From assembly GCA_963667725.2 (NCBI GenBank), contig CAXXHO010000003.1:832001-896000 (forward strand): a stretch of 64,000 bases of DNA, read 5' to 3'. This document shows, piece after piece, positions 1-11,066 of this stretch. The position numbers and the translations under genes were made by a program. The notes beneath the pieces were generated by a model. It saw only the letters and a program-made list of their open reading frames with translations, ran no database searches and was not told where the DNA came from. Origin of the DNA: Treponemataceae bacterium (lineage in GTDB: Bacteria; Spirochaetota; Spirochaetia; Treponematales; Rectinemataceae). Position 1 is the first letter of the stretch. Every line of letters starts with the position of its first letter.

Positions 1-1485
1 GTCGAGCGCGAAGCCACGTCCTATTCCGTCTACGATAGAGCCTGTCCCGATGTCCTGAAGCTTGTCTTCAAGATCCATCAACAGCTGTGGCGCGCTGCCG
101 GGTTCGGTCGATCTGCCGTCGAAGATGATGTGAAGATAGACGTTCCGCAGCTCTTGGGCTTTTGCCATTCTGGCCACGGCTACGGCGTAATCCATGCTTC
201 CGTGGGAGGACTTGTAGGTCAGGTAGGTTATCAAATGCAGGGCCGCGCCTTTTTCTCGAGCCTTCCCGATGGAATGGAGAATGACGGGGTTTTTCTCGAA
301 CGAGCCGTCTTCGATTGCCTTGTCGATGCGTATGTCGTCCTGAATGACGCGGCGTCCCGCGCCGAGGTTCATATGACCGGCTTCGGAATTTCCCGCTTTA
401 CCAGACGCCAGTCCCACGTGCGCGCCTGAGGCGTTCAGGCGGCACCAGGAGGAACGGCTGATAAGGCTATCCCAGTATGGGGTCGATGCGAGGAACATCG
501 CGTCATTATCGTCGCCAGAGCCAAGTCCCCAGCCGTCCAGAATCACTAAAAGTACCTTGCGGTTTGTCCCCCAGTCCTTGTTGCCTGTCAGCTTGTTTCC
601 TGTCATCTGCGCGGGCTTTTCAATGCCCATGATATCAAGGACTGTCGGAGCGACGTCATAAAGGGAGCCGTCTCTCAGCGGCATCGTTTCGTCGGGATTT
701 TTTGGGTCCAGAATTATGAAAGGGACAAGGTTTGTGGTGTGGGCGACATCAGGCGTTCCGTTTTTCGTGTAGAGCTTTTCAATATTGCCGTGGTCCGCGG
801 TGACAATCACGACATAGTCGCGCTTCAGCGCCTTGATGGCAACATTCTCAAGATTGCCGCTTACCGCTTTGCAGGCCTCGAGTTTAGCCTCAGTGCTCGA
901 CGTATGGCCAATTACATCGCCGTTCGCGAAGTTGACGACGATAAAATCATATCCGCCCAGCGCTTCTTCAACCGTCTTTGCGACTTCGGGCAGTGAAAGC
1001 TGTGGAACCGTATCAAAGGAAAGGCCCTTGGGGGAAGGAACGCAGCGGTTCGTCTCTCCGGCAAGACTGTCATCGTTCCCGCCGTTGAAGAAGTACGTCA
1101 CGTGCGCGAACTTCTCGGACTCGGCGCAGTGGAACTGGGTTTTTCCGGCCTTCGACAGCACCTGAGCCAAAGGAAGGTCGACTTTATAGGGCGCGAACGC
1201 GATCGGGAGATGTCGGAATTTTTCGTGGTACTGCGTAAGCAATACGAAGTCCAGGTCATGAAGGTACTTTCTGGGGACGGCAGAGAAGGCGGAGTCGGTG
1301 AACATTTCGGTCAGTTCGATTTCGCGCTCGCCTCTTCTGCAGCAGAAGACGACGCTGTCGCCATCCTGTATCCTTCTGTGCGAGCGGCTCACCAAGGCGG
1401 CCATGTGGTAGTCGTCCATGCCATCGGCATACGCTTTTCTTAGGGCTTCAGCCAGAGCGCGCCCACCATGCTCGGTTTGCTGCAT
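1..1485 (-). CDS. Circularly permuted 2,3-bisphosphoglycerate-independent phosphoglycerate mutase (iPGM/GpmI) homologue; 3' end runs off the window
   Basis: Translated by hand; not in the ORF track because there is no stop in the window. GGAG RBS, ATG at 1485, open to base 1 (495 codons). Motif order: ESEKFAHVTYFFNGG, NFANGDVIGH, TADHGN, AHTT, DVAPT, QMTG (normally C-terminal), then LVILDGWG, GNSEAGHMNLGAGR, FDGRS, GRGFALD (normally N-terminal). Confidence 0.9.
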   Translation of the reverse strand, partial: MQQTEHGGRALAEALRKAYADGMDDYHMAALVSRSHRRIQDGDSVVFCCRRGEREIELTEMFTDSAFSAVPRKYLHDLDFVLLTQYHEKFRHLPIAFAPYKVDLPLAQVLSKAGKTQFHCAESEKFAHVTYFFNGGNDDSLAGETNRCVPSPKGLSFDTVPQLSLPEVAKTVEEALGGYDFIVVNFANGDVIGHTSSTEAKLEACKAVSGNLENVAIKALKRDYVVIVTADHGNIEKLYTKNGTPDVAHTTNLVPFIILDPKNPDETMPLRDGSLYDVAPTVLDIMGIEKPAQMTGNKLTGNKDWGTNRKVLLVILDGWGLGSGDDNDAMFLASTPYWDSLISRSSWCRLNASGAHVGLASGKAGNSEAGHMNLGAGRRVIQDDIRIDKAIEDGSFEKNPVILHSIGKAREKGAALHLITYLTYKSSHGSMDYAVAVARMAKAQELRNVYLHIIFDGRSTEPGSAPQLLMDLEDKLQDIGTGSIVDGIGRGFALD

Positions 1486-1498
1486 TCCGTTCTCCGTA

Positions 1499-2602
1499 CT
1501 AGATAGTATTTCGTCTGTTGCGTTCTTCCTCGACATCTTTGCTCTCAGGCTTGTACCATGCGGGATCCTTTATCTTGATAAAGCAGGGTTCGCCTGCCCT
1601 GAAAAAGTTCCTGTGCGGAGTCTGGACCATGAAAGTGCCTTTGCCTACGGATACCAGATATTCCATGAATTCCGTTTTTGAGGTTCTCTTGAGGATTGTC
1701 GACTTGTAGCCTTCCTCTCTGTTGAGGTCGATCGCGTTTGGTCTTGTGGCCATCACATAATCGCCTTTCAGATCTAATGGAGTCCCGGTGAACAGTAAAC
1801 TGGACTCGTCATCTTTTAAAAAAGCTCTTCCGTCCCTGATAGCGACATCGGTGAAATTGGACTGGCCGAGGAAGTTGTAGACAAAGCGATTGACCGGCTT
1901 GTGATACAATTCCTGCGGAGTTCCGATCTGCTGGATATTTCCCATGTCCATGACCAGCATGCGGTCGGAAAGCGCCATGGCCTCCGCTTGATCGTGGGTG
2001 ACAAAGATGATGGTAAATCCGAATTCTTTCTGCAGCCTTTTGATTTCAAAGCGCATCGATTCTCGCAGATGAGGGTCGAGATTCGAAAGCGGCTCATCGA
2101 GGAGCATGACATCGGGATTGACGACGATCGCTCTAGCCAAGGCGATTCTTTGCTGCTGACCGCCGGAGAGGTCTGAAGGATAGACTTTTTCAAGTCCGTC
2201 GAGGTTGCTGTGGTGAAGGGTGAGCGCTACGCGCTTTTGTATCTCTGAGCTTGGGCACTTTTTCACCTTAAGAGGGAAGGCCACGTTGTCATAGACATTC
2301 AGATGAGGCCAAACGGCGAAGGCTTGGAAGACCATCCCCAAATTACGCTTTTCCGGTGGAAGATAGATGTTCTTCTTCTTGTCCGAAACAAGCCTGCCGC
2401 CGAGGTAGATCGAACCTTCGGAGAGGTCTTCAAAACCCGCGATCATACGCAACGTGGTAGTCTTTCCGCAGCCCGAGGGACCGAGGAAGGAGAAACACTC
2501 GCCTTTTTTCACGGAGAGGTTGAAATCCTTGACCGCCACAACCGTTCCCAACGACTTTGTGGTAAACGACTTTGTCACATGCTCAAGCACTATTTGGTCC
2601 AT
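1499..2602 (-). CDS. ABC transporter ATP-binding protein (FbpC/PotA-like)
   Basis: [25 protein letters not shown]; start trimmed to the ATG next to the permease stop. Confidence 0.93.
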   Translation of the reverse strand: MDQIVLEHVTKSFTTKSLGTVVAVKDFNLSVKKGECFSFLGPSGCGKTTTLRMIAGFEDLSEGSIYLGGRLVSDKKKNIYLPPEKRNLGMVFQAFAVWPHLNVYDNVAFPLKVKKCPSSEIQKRVALTLHHSNLDGLEKVYPSDLSGGQQQRIALARAIVVNPDVMLLDEPLSNLDPHLRESMRFEIKRLQKEFGFTIIFVTHDQAEAMALSDRMLVMDMGNIQQIGTPQELYHKPVNRFVYNFLGQSNFTDVAIRDGRAFLKDDESSLLFTGTPLDLKGDYVMATRPNAIDLNREEGYKSTILKRTSKTEFMEYLVSVGKGTFMVQTPHRNFFRAGEPCFIKIKDPAWYKPESKDVEEERNRRNTI

Positions 2603-2603
2603 G

Positions 2604-4331
2604 TCATACTCTCTTTTTGTCTTTGACGAGTGCCTTGACAATGTTGTTGCAGAGAATGATCAGCGTGATCGTGACCACCGAAAGGGCTGCCGCCGGAGCT
2701 ATCTGGCCGTTGATTCTCAACTGGTAAATGGCGACCCCAAGCGTCCTGCTTTTGGGTCCGTACAGAAGAATGGATGTTGTCAGTTCCCTCATGCAAGGAA
2801 GGAATACCAGGAAGAACCCCGATATCATGGCGGGCTTGATCAAAGGCAGGGTAATATCCTTGAGAGTCTGCATGTGGGATGCCCCGCAGGACCTCGCGGC
2901 CTCCTCAAGCGAGGCGTGGACCTGATGCAACGCGGCGGAACTCGATTTAAGCGCGTACGACAAGTACCTCGCGATGTAGGCGACAAGGATTATCCAAATG
3001 GTGTTGTACAACGTGATTCCGAAAAACGCTCCCGACCAGGCGAGGATACAGCCGATGGCCATGACGGTTCCGGGCAACGAATAGGGAAGAACCGCCATCA
3101 TTTCAAGGGCGATGCCTCCTTTCGGTTTTACCTTGTAGATGACATAGGCAAGCATCGTTCCCAGAAGCAGGCAGAAGGAAGCCGCCGAGAATGCCAGAAA
3201 CAGCGAGTTTTTCACCGAATCGCGGACCATGATGTTGCCGACGAAGATTCTGCGGAAATTGGCTAGGGTAAGGTTCTGGGCAAGGAACGGCAGGCCGTAC
3301 GCTTTCACGAAGCTGACCAGGATGATCATGACGATCGGCGCGACGACGATAAGGCTCAGGAACAGCAGCGAGAAGGCGAGAAGAGGATACTTGGCTCCCC
3401 TGAGCTTGATGAGCATGGGACGCATGGACTTTCCTTTGATGATGTCGTATCGCCCGTGCGTCATAAGGCGTCTCTGTACCAGAAGCGCAATGGAGACGAT
3501 GAACACCAGAACGATGGAGAGGGCGGCCGACTGCCTGATACCCTCGAAACTTCCGCCGGCGCGGTCCATTAGTTTGGTTATCATCGTGGGCAAGGTGAAG
3601 ATGTTCTGCGAATAACCCAACATCGCCGGTATCCCGTAGTTCGACAGAGAAGTGATGAGTACCAGAAGCATTCCGGACGAAATGGCGGGAATCGTGAGGG
3701 GAAGGGTGATCTTCCTGATCACGTACGGCTGGCTGGCTCCCGCTATCCTCGCGCTTTCCTCAAGGGTCGGGTCCATGCGCTCGAGCGCGCTGACGACCTG
3801 CATGTAGACAAAGGGGAAATAGTAGACGACTTCGATGACGATGATGCCGGCTACGCTGTTGATATTAAACGGAGCCTTCGCGAGGTTGAAAAGGGACATG
3901 AGGGCCTTGTTCACATATCCTCCACGGCCCGAGAACATCATATCCCATGACATCGCGGCGAGAAACGGCGGAATCATGAACGGAATGGAGAAGAGGAACT
4001 TCATCACCCCCGTCATGGGAATGTCGCTCCGTCCCAAAAGCCAGGCGAAGAAAACCCCCACGACGGTAGCGAGGGCGGTTGAGCAAACTCCTATCACCAT
4101 AGTGTTCCACATGGCGCCGATGTTGCTTTTCTGGAATATGACCTGCTTGAACATAGCGATGTCGATCTTTGTCCCGTCCCAGAAAGCGTAATAGAGAATC
4201 ATGAGCACGGGAAGGATGGCCACGGTTATCAGGGCTACGTAACAGAGAATGATCATCAACCGGTCCAGGGGGAAGCCCCTTTTGCCCTCAAGACGTGCCA
4301 GATCAGGGTTTATGACTCTGGAAAAGATCAT
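2604..4331 (-). CDS. ABC transporter permease, FbpB/AfuB type (two fused TM domains)
   Basis: 575 aa, many TM segments, two EAA loops (LEESARIAGAS, LEEAARSCGAS). Confidence 0.92.
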   Translation of the reverse strand: MIFSRVINPDLARLEGKRGFPLDRLMIILCYVALITVAILPVLMILYYAFWDGTKIDIAMFKQVIFQKSNIGAMWNTMVIGVCSTALATVVGVFFAWLLGRSDIPMTGVMKFLFSIPFMIPPFLAAMSWDMMFSGRGGYVNKALMSLFNLAKAPFNINSVAGIIVIEVVYYFPFVYMQVVSALERMDPTLEESARIAGASQPYVIRKITLPLTIPAISSGMLLVLITSLSNYGIPAMLGYSQNIFTLPTMITKLMDRAGGSFEGIRQSAALSIVLVFIVSIALLVQRRLMTHGRYDIIKGKSMRPMLIKLRGAKYPLLAFSLLFLSLIVVAPIVMIILVSFVKAYGLPFLAQNLTLANFRRIFVGNIMVRDSVKNSLFLAFSAASFCLLLGTMLAYVIYKVKPKGGIALEMMAVLPYSLPGTVMAIGCILAWSGAFFGITLYNTIWIILVAYIARYLSYALKSSSAALHQVHASLEEAARSCGASHMQTLKDITLPLIKPAMISGFFLVFLPCMRELTTSILLYGPKSRTLGVAIYQLRINGQIAPAAALSVVTITLIILCNNIVKALVKDKKRV

Positions 4332-5398
4332 GCATCCTCCCTCGCAAAATACCTTTCCTCGAGAAAAGCGAGCCCGACTTCCTCTCCCTCCGAATAGGAT
4401 TTCGCGTTTTCGGAAATGGCGAGCTGCTGGACCCGAATTTCCATTCCCGGAAGCCTAACGAAATAATTGTACATATTGCCGAGGAAAATCGATTGCGCGA
4501 CGGTCGCGCGAACGGGACTGTTGTCATCAAACACGATGTCCATCGGCCTTATGCCGAGCATCGCCTTTGTGCCCGTCATTTTCTCGCGAATCTGGGATTT
4601 GAAGAGGATCTTCTTTTCGAGATCAAAGAAGGCTTTGCCGTCCTCGACCACCACGGGGATGAAGTTCGAAACCCCTATGAACTGAAAGACGAATCGGTTC
4701 GCGGGGTTCCTGATGATTTCCTCATCGGATCCGATCTGGGCGATCGACCCATCGGGTTCAAGGATCACTATCTTGTCGCACAGTTGCATCGCGGCTTCCT
4801 GGTCATGCGTGATGTAGATTATCGTGGTGCCCAGCCTTTGCTGCAGAAGGCGAATTTCGACAAGCATCTGCTCGCGGAGCTTGGCGTCAAGGTTGGTGAT
4901 CGGTTCATCCATGATGAGAAAATCGCTGGATGATGTCAGAGCCCGCGCTATCGCGACTCTCTGCTGCTGCCCGCCTGAAAGTTGGGAAGGCATGTACTTC
5001 TCGTAGCCCACCATATTGACTTGTCCTAGCGCGTTGTGCACCTGAGGACCTGTCTCTTCCTTCGACAGCCCGCGCTTTTTCAGCGGATAGGCGATGTTGT
5101 CGTAGACGCTGAGATGCGGCCAGACGGCATAATCCTGAAATACCACGCCGATATGTCTTTGTTCGGGGGGAATGTCGACTCTATCCTTGTGACTGAACAT
5201 GGTCTTTTCGTCAATTTTCACCGTTCCCTGTTGCGGCTTGAGGAAACCGCAGATCGCCCTGACAATGGTGGACTTGCCGCAACCCGAGGGACCAACGATG
5301 CCCATAATCTGGCCCGGTTCGATCTTCAGTGAGAAATCCTTGAGGACCACATGCTCGCCATAGCTTACGCAGATATTTTCAAGTTCGACCTTTTCCAC
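4328..5398 (-). CDS. Second ABC transporter ATP-binding protein
   Basis: [25 protein letters not shown]; 4-nt overlap with the permease start. Confidence 0.92.
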
Positions 5399-5466: not shown

Positions 5467-6471
5467 TTACTTTTTTGTCTTGAAATATGAATCGAACTGG
5501 TCAAGCAGCTTGTTGCTCACTTTGGCGAGGTCGACCCAATCGATAGGAAGCGCCTTTGAGGCTATTTCGGTGGCAGTCAGCATGCCGGCGGGAAGTTTGA
5601 CGCCGTCGACGACTGGCGTGATATTGTACTGAGTAAGCAGCTTCTGGCCGCCGTTCGGATCCAGGATGAAATCATAAAGAAGCTTTGCGAGCTTTTCGTG
5701 CGGAGCGCCGGCTGGAATCGCGATCGGACAGGGCACGGCGACGATATCCTTGGTATCATGCCAGCCAATCGGGGAACCTTCAGCCATAAGGTTTTTAGTG
5801 TTGTAATCAACGCCGAAGGCGACCTTGTATGAACCGGCCGCGACTGCATTGTTTGTCGCGCCCGAACTCGATTGAAGCTCCATGCCCATCTCGCTGAGCT
5901 TTTTAAAGTAATCCCAGCCGTATTTGGGGTTGTGAGTCATCGCATAGATTAGCGCCTTCGTCGAACCTGAACCGGTCGGGTCCGTCATGATCAGCTGTTT
6001 ATTGAAATTCGGGGCGAGAAGGCCGTCCCAGTTGTACGGGGCTTCCTTATCCGAACACGAGGTCGTGCTGAAGGTAATGCCCATGATCAGCAGACGGGCT
6101 CCGGTAAAATAGCCCGCGGCATCCTTGAACTTGGAGTCCACACCCGTCACGAAGGGGGACATATACTGGAGAAGGTGATTATCGGCCTTGAGAGTGATCA
6201 TCGCCGAGGGATCCGCAAGCCATGCAAGATCACAGGTTACGGACTTGGACTGGAATTCCATCAGGAGTTTGGTGACGCATTTGCCTGATGTGGCGGAATA
6301 GTAATCCAGCTTGACATTCGGATACTTGGCTTCAAAAGCGTTTTTGAGAGCGATCACGACATCCTCGCCGGTAGACGAATACAACATAACCTTTCCGCTG
6401 TATGAGGCGTCGGCGGCGATGGCTGGCAACAAAGCCGAGACGAGCAACCAAATAAAAATCAGCTTTTTCAT
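5467..6471 (-). CDS. Extracellular solute-binding protein (FbpA/AfuA-like)
   Basis: Signal peptide, LYSS, DPTGSGS motif, AGGAGG RBS, first gene of the ABC operon. Confidence 0.88.
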   Translation of the reverse strand: MKKLIFIWLLVSALLPAIAADASYSGKVMLYSSTGEDVVIALKNAFEAKYPNVKLDYYSATSGKCVTKLLMEFQSKSVTCDLAWLADPSAMITLKADNHLLQYMSPFVTGVDSKFKDAAGYFTGARLLIMGITFSTTSCSDKEAPYNWDGLLAPNFNKQLIMTDPTGSGSTKALIYAMTHNPKYGWDYFKKLSEMGMELQSSSGATNNAVAAGSYKVAFGVDYNTKNLMAEGSPIGWHDTKDIVAVPCPIAIPAGAPHEKLAKLLYDFILDPNGGQKLLTQYNITPVVDGVKLPAGMLTATEIASKALPIDWVDLAKVSNKLLDQFDSYFKTKK

Positions 6472-6658
6472 ACTACCTTTCCTCCTTGATAACGGGCTTG
6501 AACCCGAAAGGTAATTTTATTATGAGTTATGGAATTTTTAATGGGTAGTACAAAATCATGACTTTTTTATCGGTTGTTCGAAATTTGAATTATTCCTTCT
6601 TTTTCTTTTATCTTGTCAAGAATTACCTTTGTCATGCATAATAGCTTCGGAGAACTCC

Positions 6659-8893
6659 ATGCCCCAGGGGAAAAGCAGGACAAGATTATCCATGTCGATG
6701 ATCTTCACCGGATCGTTGGTAGGAATGTTTTTAATTTTTCTGATTCTCATGGCTATTGTCTACAGCCAGTTTCAGAAATCGCTGCTCTTGTCTCTTGCCA
6801 AACAGAACGAGGAATTCGCCTCCCAGGTCAGTTCAACCACAAAATTCGCCGATGAGATTCTTATCAGTGTCACAAACCAGCTCTTCTACGATCCGGCCGT
6901 AACGTTGCTAAGGAAAAGCGATAAGATTTCCAACTTTGAATTCATCGAGGGAATAAGACAGATAAACGATATCGCCGCCTCGGCTATCCTGATTGACTCG
7001 ATCTACATCTATAACGGCAAGAAGGATTATATTTACAGTACCGCGCAGTATGGGCCGGTCAACGATAATGCCGAGCGTTTCAGGGACAAGGACGCGGTAC
7101 GAATGCTCCGTGAGCGTAGGAGCGAGCAACGGCTGGTAATTATTCCCCGGGAAACATCCATGTTCAGCGGTTCGGGTAATTCGGCCATCTATTCGTTTAT
7201 GTTCTTTGAGACGATTTCGGACGGGACTCCGGATACCAACGCTATCCTTCTCAACCTGAAGGCATCGGCCTTCACCAAGTTGTATTTCGGCAGCGACTTT
7301 CAGAATCAGGCGTTCATCATAAACGGCAAAGGGACCTTGATCGCTTCCAAGGACTCTTTAGAAGAAAGTGCCAGGCATGGGCTAATCGCCAGGATCCTCG
7401 CGGAAAACGCGAACGACAAGGCTAGCGGCTATTTCACCTTCCCCAATGCTGGCGTAGGGAAAATGCTCTGTTTCTATTCATCTTTGGGTGAGCACAACTG
7501 GATCTATGTAAAGACTCTTGCCTACGAAGAAGCCTTTCCCGCATTGCTGCGTTCACGCAACCGCACCCTTGTCGCCATTTCCGTCATAATCCTTGTTCTC
7601 GTGGCGGTATCCGCGCTCATAGCGAATCGCGTCTATGTCCCCTACAGAAAGATTTCGCAAAAGATTTCCAAAGCAATCAGCGGCAACGGAAATGAGAATC
7701 CCGACCAAATAATCAGGAACCTTGACCAGCTTATCGTTGAACATGACAGCCGGGAATTCCTTGGGCCCATGATAAAAAGCGAGATCCTCAAGGATTTGCT
7801 TCTGGGAAAGAAGTCTATCGATATGCCCGACTTCAACCTTGAAACCCACCACCTTCAGATAGCCATAAACTTTCCAGTCACGCTATATCTATTAAGCAAC
7901 AAGGACATAGTACTTAATACCGAGGATATCCAGGAGAGGATCCCATATTGCGAAACGGTGGCGATAAATTCCTACCTTATCCTTTTCCTCCAGCCTATGA
8001 GTCAGGATCAGGAAATACATGTACGGAACGAACTCGTCAGAAAAAATCCTGACATGCTTCTCATTTACTCCGAAGAAATCAGGGACTGGTCTTTGATCCC
8101 TGACACTTTCCAGAAACTCGGGGAGACTTGGCAGCTCAGATTTCTGCATCCTGAGACAAAGCTGATTAGCTTGAAAGACCAGCCGCTGAGAAGGCATGTA
8201 ATGGCCCCGCTTTCTGAAAAATCGGCCGCGGTAGTAGGATTTCTGAAGAAGGGATTCTATTCAAAAGCGGCGGAAACCTGGAATCTGTTTGTTCGTGAAC
8301 TGGAGGACAAGCAGTACTCGACGGTCAACGTTGCGCTCATAAACATCGCGAATGCCATACTCAAGCTTGCCTTGGATTACAAAGTGCTTGATTCGACATA
8401 CGAGGAATCTTGCGTGGCTTACCAGATGACGATCGACAGTCTGGATGATATGAACGAACTGAATAAACTGTTGGACGATCTTTTTCGCAAAATCACCGAC
8501 AATGTCCAGCAGATGCAGCAGACCAGCAAGAAAGATACAATCCATGAGATTTTCGAATACCTCGCCCAAAACTACACCGACATGCAGATTTCCACTAAGT
8601 CGGTTGCCGATGTCTTCAAGATGTCGCCCGCGTACCTGTCGCGAATTTACAGACAGGGGCTGGGCCATTCTCTGATGGATGAAATTAATGCGCTAAGGAT
8701 TCAAAAGGCTAAAGAGTGTCTTGCCGATCCCAACGGCCTGATAAAGAACATTCCGCAGAAGATTGGTCTTGAGAATTCACAGTACTTTTTCCTGCTGTTC
8801 AAGAAAATGACAGGCAAGACGCCCAAAGCATATCAGAATGACTTGATAATGCTCAGAAAGAGAGAGGCCGCGAAACAGAGCAGACGAGTCTGA
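6659..8893 (+). CDS. Membrane-anchored AraC-family regulator with extracytoplasmic sensor domain (YesS-like)
   Basis: Two TM helices flanking a ~270-aa domain; C-terminal double HTH (VADVFKMSPAYLSRIY...YFFLLFKKMTGKTPKAY); GGAG before ATG 6659. Confidence 0.88.
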   Translation: MPQGKSRTRLSMSMIFTGSLVGMFLIFLILMAIVYSQFQKSLLLSLAKQNEEFASQVSSTTKFADEILISVTNQLFYDPAVTLLRKSDKISNFEFIEGIRQINDIAASAILIDSIYIYNGKKDYIYSTAQYGPVNDNAERFRDKDAVRMLRERRSEQRLVIIPRETSMFSGSGNSAIYSFMFFETISDGTPDTNAILLNLKASAFTKLYFGSDFQNQAFIINGKGTLIASKDSLEESARHGLIARILAENANDKASGYFTFPNAGVGKMLCFYSSLGEHNWIYVKTLAYEEAFPALLRSRNRTLVAISVIILVLVAVSALIANRVYVPYRKISQKISKAISGNGNENPDQIIRNLDQLIVEHDSREFLGPMIKSEILKDLLLGKKSIDMPDFNLETHHLQIAINFPVTLYLLSNKDIVLNTEDIQERIPYCETVAINSYLILFLQPMSQDQEIHVRNELVRKNPDMLLIYSEEIRDWSLIPDTFQKLGETWQLRFLHPETKLISLKDQPLRRHVMAPLSEKSAAVVGFLKKGFYSKAAETWNLFVRELEDKQYSTVNVALINIANAILKLALDYKVLDSTYEESCVAYQMTIDSLDDMNELNKLLDDLFRKITDNVQQMQQTSKKDTIHEIFEYLAQNYTDMQISTKSVADVFKMSPAYLSRIYRQGLGHSLMDEINALRIQKAKECLADPNGLIKNIPQKIGLENSQYFFLLFKKMTGKTPKAYQNDLIMLRKREAAKQSRRV

Positions 8894-10079
8894 TGTTCCG
8901 GTTCTCAATCCAAGCCGATAGGGATTTGCAATCTTCGGTCTTGGCATGGAACAGCATAACCGCCGAGGGTTTTGCTTTCTGTATCAGGCTCTTGATATCT
9001 TCTTGATCCGGATGCACCTTGATGACGGTCGATTCAACAACCAGCTTTATTGATTCCTTTCGGCGGTATTCCGGGTCCGATATCATTTTCCCCAAAGAAC
9101 CTGTGGCGACATGTCCGCTTATGATTATTTTGTTTCTGCCGTCATTTTTGATTTTTTCAAAGTATTGGACAGAAACGGGGCTTGTCATCATGCCGTCTGG
9201 ACATAAAACCGCATATCCTCCTAAATCATCACTGGTTCCGTCTTGAGCTTCTATAAAGCTTCCCTTCGCGTCCCATAACGATGATTCAGAAATCCACCCG
9301 ACTTTGTCTTTAAGCGTATACAAGCTCTTTAGGATGCTTTTATCTACAATTAATGACACTTTCTGTTCCAAGAGATACAAAAAGAGGTCGATTCCCCGTC
9401 CGTTTGAAGGTACCGGGAGCAACACGGTTCCGTTTTCGCGAATCGTCTTATTAACAGATGCGAGGATGTTCTCATACTGTTGTTTTTGGTCGATTGTCCT
9501 TGCGGCATATGCTGCATCGGTGATAAGAATGTCGCAGGCCGGCATTTCATCGGCCTTCAGCAACAGCGAGTCGAAGCAGGTATCGCCGGTATAGAGAAGA
9601 GTAGTGCTGTTAAAGTTAAAATGGTACCACAGACTCCCCAGCATGTGGGCGCTTCGCCCGGCGAGTACCTTGATGCCAGAGATCTCATTGACCCCAAGTT
9701 CCAGTGGGTGAAAATCCAGAAGTTCGATGTTGTTCTCGTCAAACGGAAGAGTTCCGCCTTTCTCTTTCACGTAAGAAACCCATTTTCTCATGAAGCCTTT
9801 CGCTAATCTCATGGTTTCCGAGTGGCAGAATACCGGTCCACGGTATCCGAGCTCGTATAGGTAAGGCAAGGCGGCGCTATGGTCTTCATGTGCGTGGGAA
9901 AGGAATACGGCATCGATCGATAATGCTATCTCTTTGGTTATATGGGGGTAGACTCGTTCGACCGTGGAAATTTCCCTCAGCACGCCGCAATCGAGGAGAA
10001 AACGTTTCCCCCCAGCGGAAACATGAAAGCAATTGCGCGCGTCTTCGCCGCTGCCGCCTAACGACTCGACTGTAACCAT
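8853..10079 (-). CDS. MBL-fold metallo-hydrolase, beta-CASP type
   Basis: LLDCG, SHAHEDH, AHMLGS, YTGD, late KVHPD and LFHA motifs. Confidence 0.88.
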   Translation of the reverse strand: MVTVESLGGSGEDARNCFHVSAGGKRFLLDCGVLREISTVERVYPHITKEIALSIDAVFLSHAHEDHSAALPYLYELGYRGPVFCHSETMRLAKGFMRKWVSYVKEKGGTLPFDENNIELLDFHPLELGVNEISGIKVLAGRSAHMLGSLWYHFNFNSTTLLYTGDTCFDSLLLKADEMPACDILITDAAYAARTIDQKQQYENILASVNKTIRENGTVLLPVPSNGRGIDLFLYLLEQKVSLIVDKSILKSLYTLKDKVGWISESSLWDAKGSFIEAQDGTSDDLGGYAVLCPDGMMTSPVSVQYFEKIKNDGRNKIIISGHVATGSLGKMISDPEYRRKESIKLVVESTVIKVHPDQEDIKSLIQKAKPSAVMLFHAKTEDCKSLSAWIENRNIRLVCSVSRPLSF

Positions 10080-10129: not shown

Positions 10130-10355
10130 GGACTGTCATTCATATCTATATATCCGATACGCGACTTGGGACGATGTATCTGCTGGTCCCGAAACCGCGG
10201 CGAGGAGGCCATATCTCCTTTTCGCGAACGGGCGGAAGCGAAGCGAGCATACATTGATCGAGATGGTACTCGAGGCATACACATGGGTTTGTTCCCATAC
10301 CTCTCATGATCGGCAGCGGCCGATGGCCGCAAATCTTTCTGAACAGGAGTCTTCT

Positions 10356-11066
10356 ATGCAGAAGCGAATCGGGATTGTACTCGCGATCGCCCTGTTGGCG
10401 CTCACCGCGGTGGGGGCACAGGGCATGTATCTCGGACTTGGGCACGCGTCCAATTTCCGCCTCGGACCGGGCAAAGACAGCACGGGAACGCAGGTATACA
10501 GTTTCAATTTCGTATTTTCCTCCGTCATCTTCGACGCGGCGGGGAAAGTCCTGGATTGCGAATTCGACGCCCTCGAAGTCAGCACGCCTAACTACGACGG
10601 CGCTTCCATGCCCCATTTCGCTGGCTGGCCCGGGAGTCCCGAACCCAACTTCACCGACCACAAGACGGAAAAAGTGGCGGGAAAAGCCCCCACGACCGTC
10701 GAGGCGGTGGCGGCTGACATAAAAGGCTGGAAGACCAAGCGCGATCGCGGCGATGACTACGGGATGAATCCGAGAAACGACTGGTATCATCAGATGGATA
10801 TATACGAGAAACTCTTCGTCGGTAAAACGATGGACGAGATAAATGCCTGGTTTGCCAGGTATTTCAGCGACGTGAACGGCCGCCCTCTCAATCTCGAGAC
10901 GAAGGTTGAGAAAGATATGGCCAAGGTCGCCCTCCTCAATGAGACGGAGAAGGCCATGCTCGTCGACGTGCGAACCGGCGCCACGATGAGCCTGAACGAC
11001 GCCCATGGTCCCTATCTCGCCGCCCTGAAGAGCGCCTGGGAAAACAGGAAACCTTTGGCGAAGTAA
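10356..11066 (+). CDS. Secreted protein with putative FMN-attachment (flavinylation) motif
   Basis: AGGAG RBS, signal peptide ending AVGA, C-terminal VDVRTGATMS resembling the D-x-x-[ST]GA[ST] ApbE target. Confidence 0.65.
   Translation: MQKRIGIVLAIALLALTAVGAQGMYLGLGHASNFRLGPGKDSTGTQVYSFNFVFSSVIFDAAGKVLDCEFDALEVSTPNYDGASMPHFAGWPGSPEPNFTDHKTEKVAGKAPTTVEAVAADIKGWKTKRDRGDDYGMNPRNDWYHQMDIYEKLFVGKTMDEINAWFARYFSDVNGRPLNLETKVEKDMAKVALLNETEKAMLVDVRTGATMSLNDAHGPYLAALKSAWENRKPLAK

Follow-up and report, generated by a model that had tools for sequence, protein, structure and literature searches.

Cofactor-independent phosphoglycerate mutase (GpmI or iPGM; TIGR01307; PF01676 plus PF06415; PDB 1EJJ, 1O98, 5VPU and 4NWJ) is the described enzyme closest to the gene analyzed here. 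In the accessible part of one account it consists of a phosphatase domain linked by two hinges to a transferase domain, and the residues binding phosphoglycerate are given there only as His, Asp and Arg (PMC5382265). A survey of 702 bacterial genomes reported iPGM paralogues to be rare, and the string "permut-" does not occur in its accessible text (PMC2964296). No earlier account of a permuted GpmI was found in the literature that was searched, which was thin in subscription papers. ApgM-type iPGM and its repurposed relatives, the phosphonoformyl transferase PhpG and phosphopentomutase, are likewise alkaline-phosphatase superfamily members and use a Ser/Thr-phosphate intermediate on other substrates, but they have weak sequence similarity to our protein, a different cap domain and no such permutation. 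On the transport side, the ligands of AfuA are sugar phosphates and InoEFGK reportedly binds inositol phosphate; we know of no permuted iPGM in AfuABC or InoEFGK systems. The accessible text of one study lists InoEFGK with the T. maritima inositol pathway, in an organism that does not grow on free inositol (PMC3750489). The known phytases (histidine acid, beta-propeller, PTP-like, purple acid and metallo-beta-lactamase-fold, or MBL) resemble our proposal in reaction type but differ in fold, and the permuted enzyme, unlike them, is predicted to be cytoplasmic and to act downstream of uptake.

The gene lies at the edge of a window of 64,000 nucleotides, which is the whole stretch of DNA analyzed (G000:C3:832001-896000, G000 being the source genome). 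Its open reading frame occupies 1..1485 on the minus strand and continues to window position -71 (G000:C3:831929); the stop thus lies 71 bases past the edge, and the last 23 residues, including Arg191, are beyond it. The ATG at 1485 is likely the start, having GGAG 7 bases upstream and giving a product of 518 aa, which is as long as the closest homologues. An alternative ATG at 1536 gives 535 aa, the form of the protein P0001, whose numbering serves the P0001 coordinates below. The first part of the protein (598..1485, minus strand) aligns to the canonical C-terminal half, about residues 214-508 of the B. stearothermophilus enzyme. A 13-residue linker (559..597, minus strand) then connects QMTG, the canonical C-terminus, with KVLLVILDG, the canonical N-terminus, and the second part (1..558, minus strand) aligns to the canonical N-terminal half, residues 4-213. 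In P0001 the corresponding stretches are 30-316, aligned to 218-508 of the 1EJJ chain, and 326-535, aligned to 4-213 without gaps, and the same swapped order is seen against the canonical gpmI of the source genome itself. The new termini are near canonical 213/214, and the spacing from MxG to LDG is 20 in 93 of the 117 permuted proteins in which it could be measured. The protein does not follow the canonical chain order, and we regard it as virtually certain that it is a real circular permutant, as the first-pass annotation of this DNA had claimed.

Profile and structural evidence agree with this. Both PF01676 and PF06415 are matched, the latter as two stretches split over both ends of the protein, which places the new termini within the transferase domain. 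The AlphaFold model, built from a 77-row alignment, has a pLDDT of 94.0, which stays above 90 in the linker region, and a pTM of 0.85; the best matches in a structure search with it are iPGMs. Sequential structure aligners match one half only, with a TM of about 0.45, as expected for a permutant; for the first half, model residues 10-301 superpose on 211-510 of 1O98 with a Z of 22.8, 284 aligned residues and an rmsd of 4.6. The protein therefore shares with GpmI its two domains, its fold and 35-40% identity.

A swapped order of this kind could also come from a faulty assembly or be left over from a tandem duplication of gpmI, and chimeric assemblies of about 720 aa from the permuted family do exist in the protein database. 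We give this explanation next to no probability and reject it, as the junction is crossed by two independent contigs, one of 11 kb (run X5, with 89 differences across the compared part) and one of 1.7 kb (run X6). The same order is found in three further loci (L099, L100 and L101, at 99, 88 and 80-83% DNA identity); in L100 the cassette sits between the same flanking genes as in the source genome, recQ-like and nth-like by our reading. In addition, 116 of the 120 listed homologues are collinear with the permuted protein, with lengths of 511-536 aa and identities of 59-93%. The proteins P0013, P0020, P0028 and P0110 (719-727 aa) were considered as duplication intermediates and rejected. They are likely chimeric assemblies because behind three different canonical front halves the permuted tails, over 291-400 residues, are identical; their fronts come from different organisms, the switch falls inside conserved motifs, and there is one member of each.

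The active site was compared across 146 aligned family members (117 protein-database proteins, including P0001 and excluding the four chimeras, and 29 loci of at least 470 aa), using B. stearothermophilus numbers transferred from the 1EJJ alignment. The permuted protein keeps the two-metal and serine site of GpmI, namely the ligands D12, D403, H407, D444, H445 and H462 and the nucleophile S62, as well as the substrate-binding residues H123, R153, R185, R191, R261, R264 and K336. Most of these are invariant in the family (D12, S62, D403, H407, D444, H445, H462, K336, R153 and R191 in 146/146), and H123, R185, R261 and R264 are found in 145/146. The catalytic Ser62 (Ser384 of P0001) is encoded at 385-387, so that the codon given for it in the first-pass annotation, and the conservation of it and of the metal ligands, were borne out. 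Also on the minus strand in the second part are the codons of D12 (535-537), H123 (202-204), R153 (112-114) and R185 (16-18), with R191 at the window edge; R261, R264, K336, D403, H407, D444, H445 and H462 are kept in the first part, on the same strand.

Around this core the pocket differs from that of GpmI. Asp154 of the DGRD motif is Ser in the permuted protein (codon 109-111) and in 145/146 members, Phe260 has become Arg in 144/146 (codon 1336-1338), and Gly120 has become Lys or Arg in 138/146 (here Lys, 211-213); further changes in the family are N259C, D263E, Y186G and E231Y. In the canonical set D154 and D263 are invariant (52/52) and position 260 is F, Y or I. Asp154 is said to deprotonate the acceptor hydroxyl in iPGM. 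On balance one acid has gone and two bases have been added, with the catalytic core intact; this suggests that the substrate is more anionic and that phosphate is handed back less readily. The four motif changes noticed earlier from the DNA alone are all present, though one of them, GVHSH to SSHGS, needs refining: placed in register, GGVHSH has Gly120 replaced by Lys, Gly121/Val122 by Ser/Ser, Ser124 by Gly and His125 by Ser, while His123 is kept.

The permuted gene is not the only phosphoglycerate mutase gene of its organism. A canonical gpmI of 552 aa is found at C3:1288644-1290302 of the source genome, and others are found in 3 of the 5 other carrier genomes tested. This bears on the plainest alternative, that the protein is simply a second phosphoglycerate mutase. 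It scores 474.4 bits against TIGR01307, as two stretches, where the cut-off is 330.65 (for NF003897 the score is 373.8 against a cut-off of 862), natural circular permutants often retain function, and in two incomplete carrier genomes, G064 and G065, no canonical copy was found. Against this stand the loss of an aspartate that is invariant in canonical proteins, the presence of gpmI in the source genome, the importer context described below and the patchy spread of the gene, which was in none of 60 relatives and none of 400 other genomes of the phylum. We therefore consider a second phosphoglycerate mutase very improbable and are confident that the permuted enzyme is not the glycolytic one; a change of function is probable. 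Because it passes the cut-off at which proteins are named gpmI, the family is hidden in annotations and may mislead metabolic models. One side observation on G065 is that it carries two permuted copies (C19 and C28), one of which has a PEP-mutase-family gene (L032:4967-5845) and an ABC importer beside it.

The distribution of the gene is patchy. A query with the junction found it in 1 of 401 genomes of the phylum, namely the source genome itself, and in 1 of 399 genomes of the class Clostridia, namely the genome on which that sample was centered (0/398 others); of 46 plasmid records, the 10 that were listed had no permuted copy. In the Anaerolineae sample 13 of 251 genomes carry it. The search for permuted homologues that had been proposed was productive: besides the 116 collinear proteins, mostly named phosphoglycerate mutase and with source names that include Oscillibacter, Enterocloster and Erysipelotrichaceae, a species-genome scan (15/64 parts covered) gave 80 loci of which 33 are permuted and the rest canonical, and a metagenome scan (13/64 parts covered) gave 80 further loci. 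The permuted species-genome loci are mostly from Anaerolineae, and also from Sphaerochaetaceae, Clostridia, Bipolaricaulota and Syntrophaceae. This is a real and widespread family, apparently undescribed, to which NCBIfam gives the name gpmI.

The permuted proteins also group together in trees, which included the pocket columns, used as canonical rows those closest to the permuted profile, and were rooted on one distant canonical protein. With the halves aligned separately, FastTree placed 62 permuted proteins in one group among 52 canonical ones (0.95), and in an IQ-TREE analysis of 55 rows all 31 permuted rows are on one branch (93/94, without a support star) and the remodelled forms are one clade (100/99). 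Three proteins, P0130, P0131 and P0138, are permuted at the same site, keep DGRD, FNFRxDR and GRYY, and are basal in the permuted group, which suggests that permutation preceded the remodelling of the pocket and that these are possible intermediates. They are lone representatives, since none of the 119 other listed matches to P0131 (55-59% coverage) is permuted. The permutation itself is likely a matter of neutral history. A natural circular permutation in a central enzyme of glycolysis, with what look like intermediates, is a clear example in which to study the evolution of chain order and specificity.

In contrast to gpmI, the permuted gene is an accessory gene in an importer operon. It comes last on the minus strand, after genes for a solute-binding protein of the Fe3+/AfuA/PhnS2 class (5467..6471), an ABC ATPase (4328..5398), a fused double permease (2604..4331) and an ATPase of the PhnT2/PotA/FbpC class (1499..2641), whose stop is 13 bases before it. 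No terminator was found downstream of the gene. A divergent AraC-family gene of 754 aa (6629..8893, plus strand; found in 8 of 9 such loci) is the likely regulator, and a stand-alone beta-CASP MBL-fold hydrolase (8853..10079, minus strand) is a likely phosphoesterase partner. The binding protein has weak PDB matches, including 4R72 (E 2e-06), which puts it in the same transporter class as AfuA, and the PLP-binding 6WCE. In the RNA run X18 there are contigs on the transporter genes, and the permuted gene has scattered low cover only.

Our preferred reading, held tentatively and with a little less than an even chance of being right, is that the enzyme is a phosphoserine-type cytoplasmic phosphatase for an imported organophosphate, most likely an inositol phosphate, with phosphate as the gain in the source organism. 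The AfuABC/PhnS-class transporter would import the phosphorylated compound, and the beta-CASP hydrolase may open a diester or take off the first phosphates. Ser62 would then attack a phosphate as in iPGM; with Asp154 gone, the phosphoserine would be hydrolysed and the phosphate not returned, and the two new basic residues, Arg260 and Lys120, could bind additional anionic groups. Inositol set free in this way would be passed to neighbouring iol genes in relatives; the source genome is without iol genes, and what it would gain is phosphate. A role beside the ABC system that is specialized and not glycolytic had been suggested from the window alone, and is supported by the kept metal and serine site, the remodelled pocket, the separate gpmI and the importer link, which holds across the family.

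The importer link and its partners become apparent when the neighbours are counted by tblastn with set thresholds in 113 loci, 56 of them of at least 12 kb, counts that overstate independence because the loci are related and partly near-duplicates. A related permease is found in 53/113 loci (44/56 long ones), a HAD phosphatase in 84/113 (49/56), an MBL in 9/113 (6/56), ApgM in 51/113 (29/56), a PRK/uridine-kinase-family protein in 43/113 (29/56) and core iol genes in 23/113 (19/56). HAD or MBL is present in 55 of the 56 long loci and the two never occur together, none of the 9 MBL loci having a HAD. For each of IolG, IolE, IolD, IolB, IolM and IolN, at least one locus representative exceeds the NCBIfam cut-off; IolE of L019, IolB of L157 and IolO of L166 are below theirs. 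An iol gene is directly next to the permuted gene in L103, L127, L152, L157, L166 and L171. Two pathway versions, iolG/E/D/B and iolG/M/N, are both present in Anaerolineae-type and in Firmicutes-like metagenome loci (taxon assigned by similarity), which argues for repeated pairing and not for one hitch-hike. The 10-row clade of the source enzyme itself (99/97) contains MBL-type loci together with L103 and L127, and in these two the neighbouring genes are iolG and iolD. Two architectures seen in passing are a permuted enzyme that carries a HAD phosphatase fused at its N-terminus (L010:9230-11608 and L012:2601-5063) and uncharacterised proteins of about 400 aa that end in a PRK/uridine-kinase domain and frequently come as a pair in one locus (L006:11593-12783 and L006:14049-15239).

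Several results weigh against inositol phosphates. None of the 9 MBL-type loci has iol genes, and the source genome, which is 97% complete, has no IolE, IolB, IolD, IolM or IolN orthologues and lacks the HADs and ApgM of the other loci. No IolG, IolE or IolN above cut-off was found in it or in the other MBL-type carriers G061, G062 and G063, which are small and probably incomplete. The source binding protein has no significant similarity to that of the iol-linked loci. Among the 251 Anaerolineae-sample genomes, 8 of the 13 carriers had iolG, as did 106 of the 238 non-carriers, which is not a significant difference (Fisher p 0.26); carriers are undercounted in this test, since G064 itself escaped the junction query. 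The arginines that bind the carboxylate are all kept, and this would also fit a glycerate substrate. The described MBL phytases, as far as the accessible text of their account goes, are lactamase-B2/ZipD-like (PMC6584368); as a precedent for the beta-CASP hydrolase of the source operon they were rejected, being of a different subfamily.

The difference in binding proteins is also a point for another possibility, that MBL-type operons handle some other organophosphate, such as a sugar phosphate, a nucleotide-derived diester or a phosphonate, with the permuted enzyme as a broad polyanion phosphatase. The best family matches of the importer are PhnS2, PhnT2 and PhnU2, a SurE nucleotidase occurs in analogous modules, and the basal member L032 has the PEP-mutase-family neighbour mentioned above. 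However, every Phn match is below its cut-off (74.8 against 392.75, 313.3 against 457.7 and 188.4 against 593.25, respectively), the source enzyme shares its pocket motifs exactly with iol-linked members and nests among these, which makes this quite unlikely.

More distant modules bear on the question of phosphatase chemistry. Homologues of the source binding protein, permease and MBL at 28-31% identity form modules on alphaproteobacterial plasmids, and three of the four fetched carry a phosphatase gene: SurE is last in L183 and L184, and a histidine phosphatase follows the MBL in L185, with none in L186. A phosphatase gene thus stands at the end of such importer and hydrolase modules, in the slot of the permuted gene. 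This counts against the view that the enzyme is a mutase for inositol phosphates, shifting phosphate between ring positions and leaving the final removal to regiospecific HAD or MBL phosphatases, as do the loss of Asp154 and a source operon with only one other enzyme. The full mutase scaffold is kept, most loci already have several phosphatases, Anaerolineae-type loci have a second mutase-family gene in ApgM, and the invariant Glu at canonical 263 could replace the missing base; even so we think a mutase unlikely. Overall, the evidence leans to phosphatase over mutase chemistry, and to inositol phosphates.

One locus, L029 from an Anaerolineae genome, points in another direction. In L029:7696-11620 a cyclic 2,3-diphosphoglycerate (cDPG) synthetase (E 8e-137 to 8ORK) lies immediately upstream of the permuted gene, whose start it overlaps; before it come an ABC importer and a TIM-barrel protein that weakly matches the CbiR phosphodiesterase. 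IolG and IolN are present elsewhere in this genome. cDPG occurs in methanogens, according to the accessible text of one report (PMC1224877). If this solute were imported and opened by the MBL, the permuted enzyme could convert the resulting 2,3-bisphosphoglycerate to phosphoglycerate for glycolysis. A change of Asp to Ser with an extra Arg and Lys would be the simplest fit for a second phosphate in a phosphoglycerate pocket, L029 branches just outside the main clade, and no iol genes would be needed, which fits the source genome. We nevertheless give it a low probability, as the synthetase is in 1 of 113 loci and absent from the source genome, and the repeated iol adjacency and the several HADs would be left unexplained.

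Returning to inositol phosphates, the widest version of the proposal is that permutation and then remodelling turned a glycolytic mutase into a new class of intracellular phytate or inositol-polyphosphate enzyme, serving an undescribed route of import followed by dephosphorylation in gut and digester anaerobes and hidden under the name gpmI. We consider this possible but doubtful. If the substrate is indeed an inositol phosphate, it would mean uptake-first use of phytate in anaerobes, with concrete candidate proteins.

Some minor features of the source genome may be added. It has two further importers of this class, a paralogue without an enzyme gene (L180:8531-13558, on C3), with a permease 50% identical to the one described here, and one like the iol-linked type beside a two-component pair (L179:7577-11612, on C5). 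Two histidine-phosphatase-family genes are found at C5:496356-496931 and C3:1992364-1992921. Beside the MBL gene is a gene (window 10254-11066, plus strand) for a protein of 270 aa whose start resembles a signal peptide and which matches nothing in Pfam or NCBIfam. Window 6001-10000, which holds the regulator and MBL genes, has a G+C content of 0.46-0.48 where that of the contig is 0.56, as would fit an acquired cassette.
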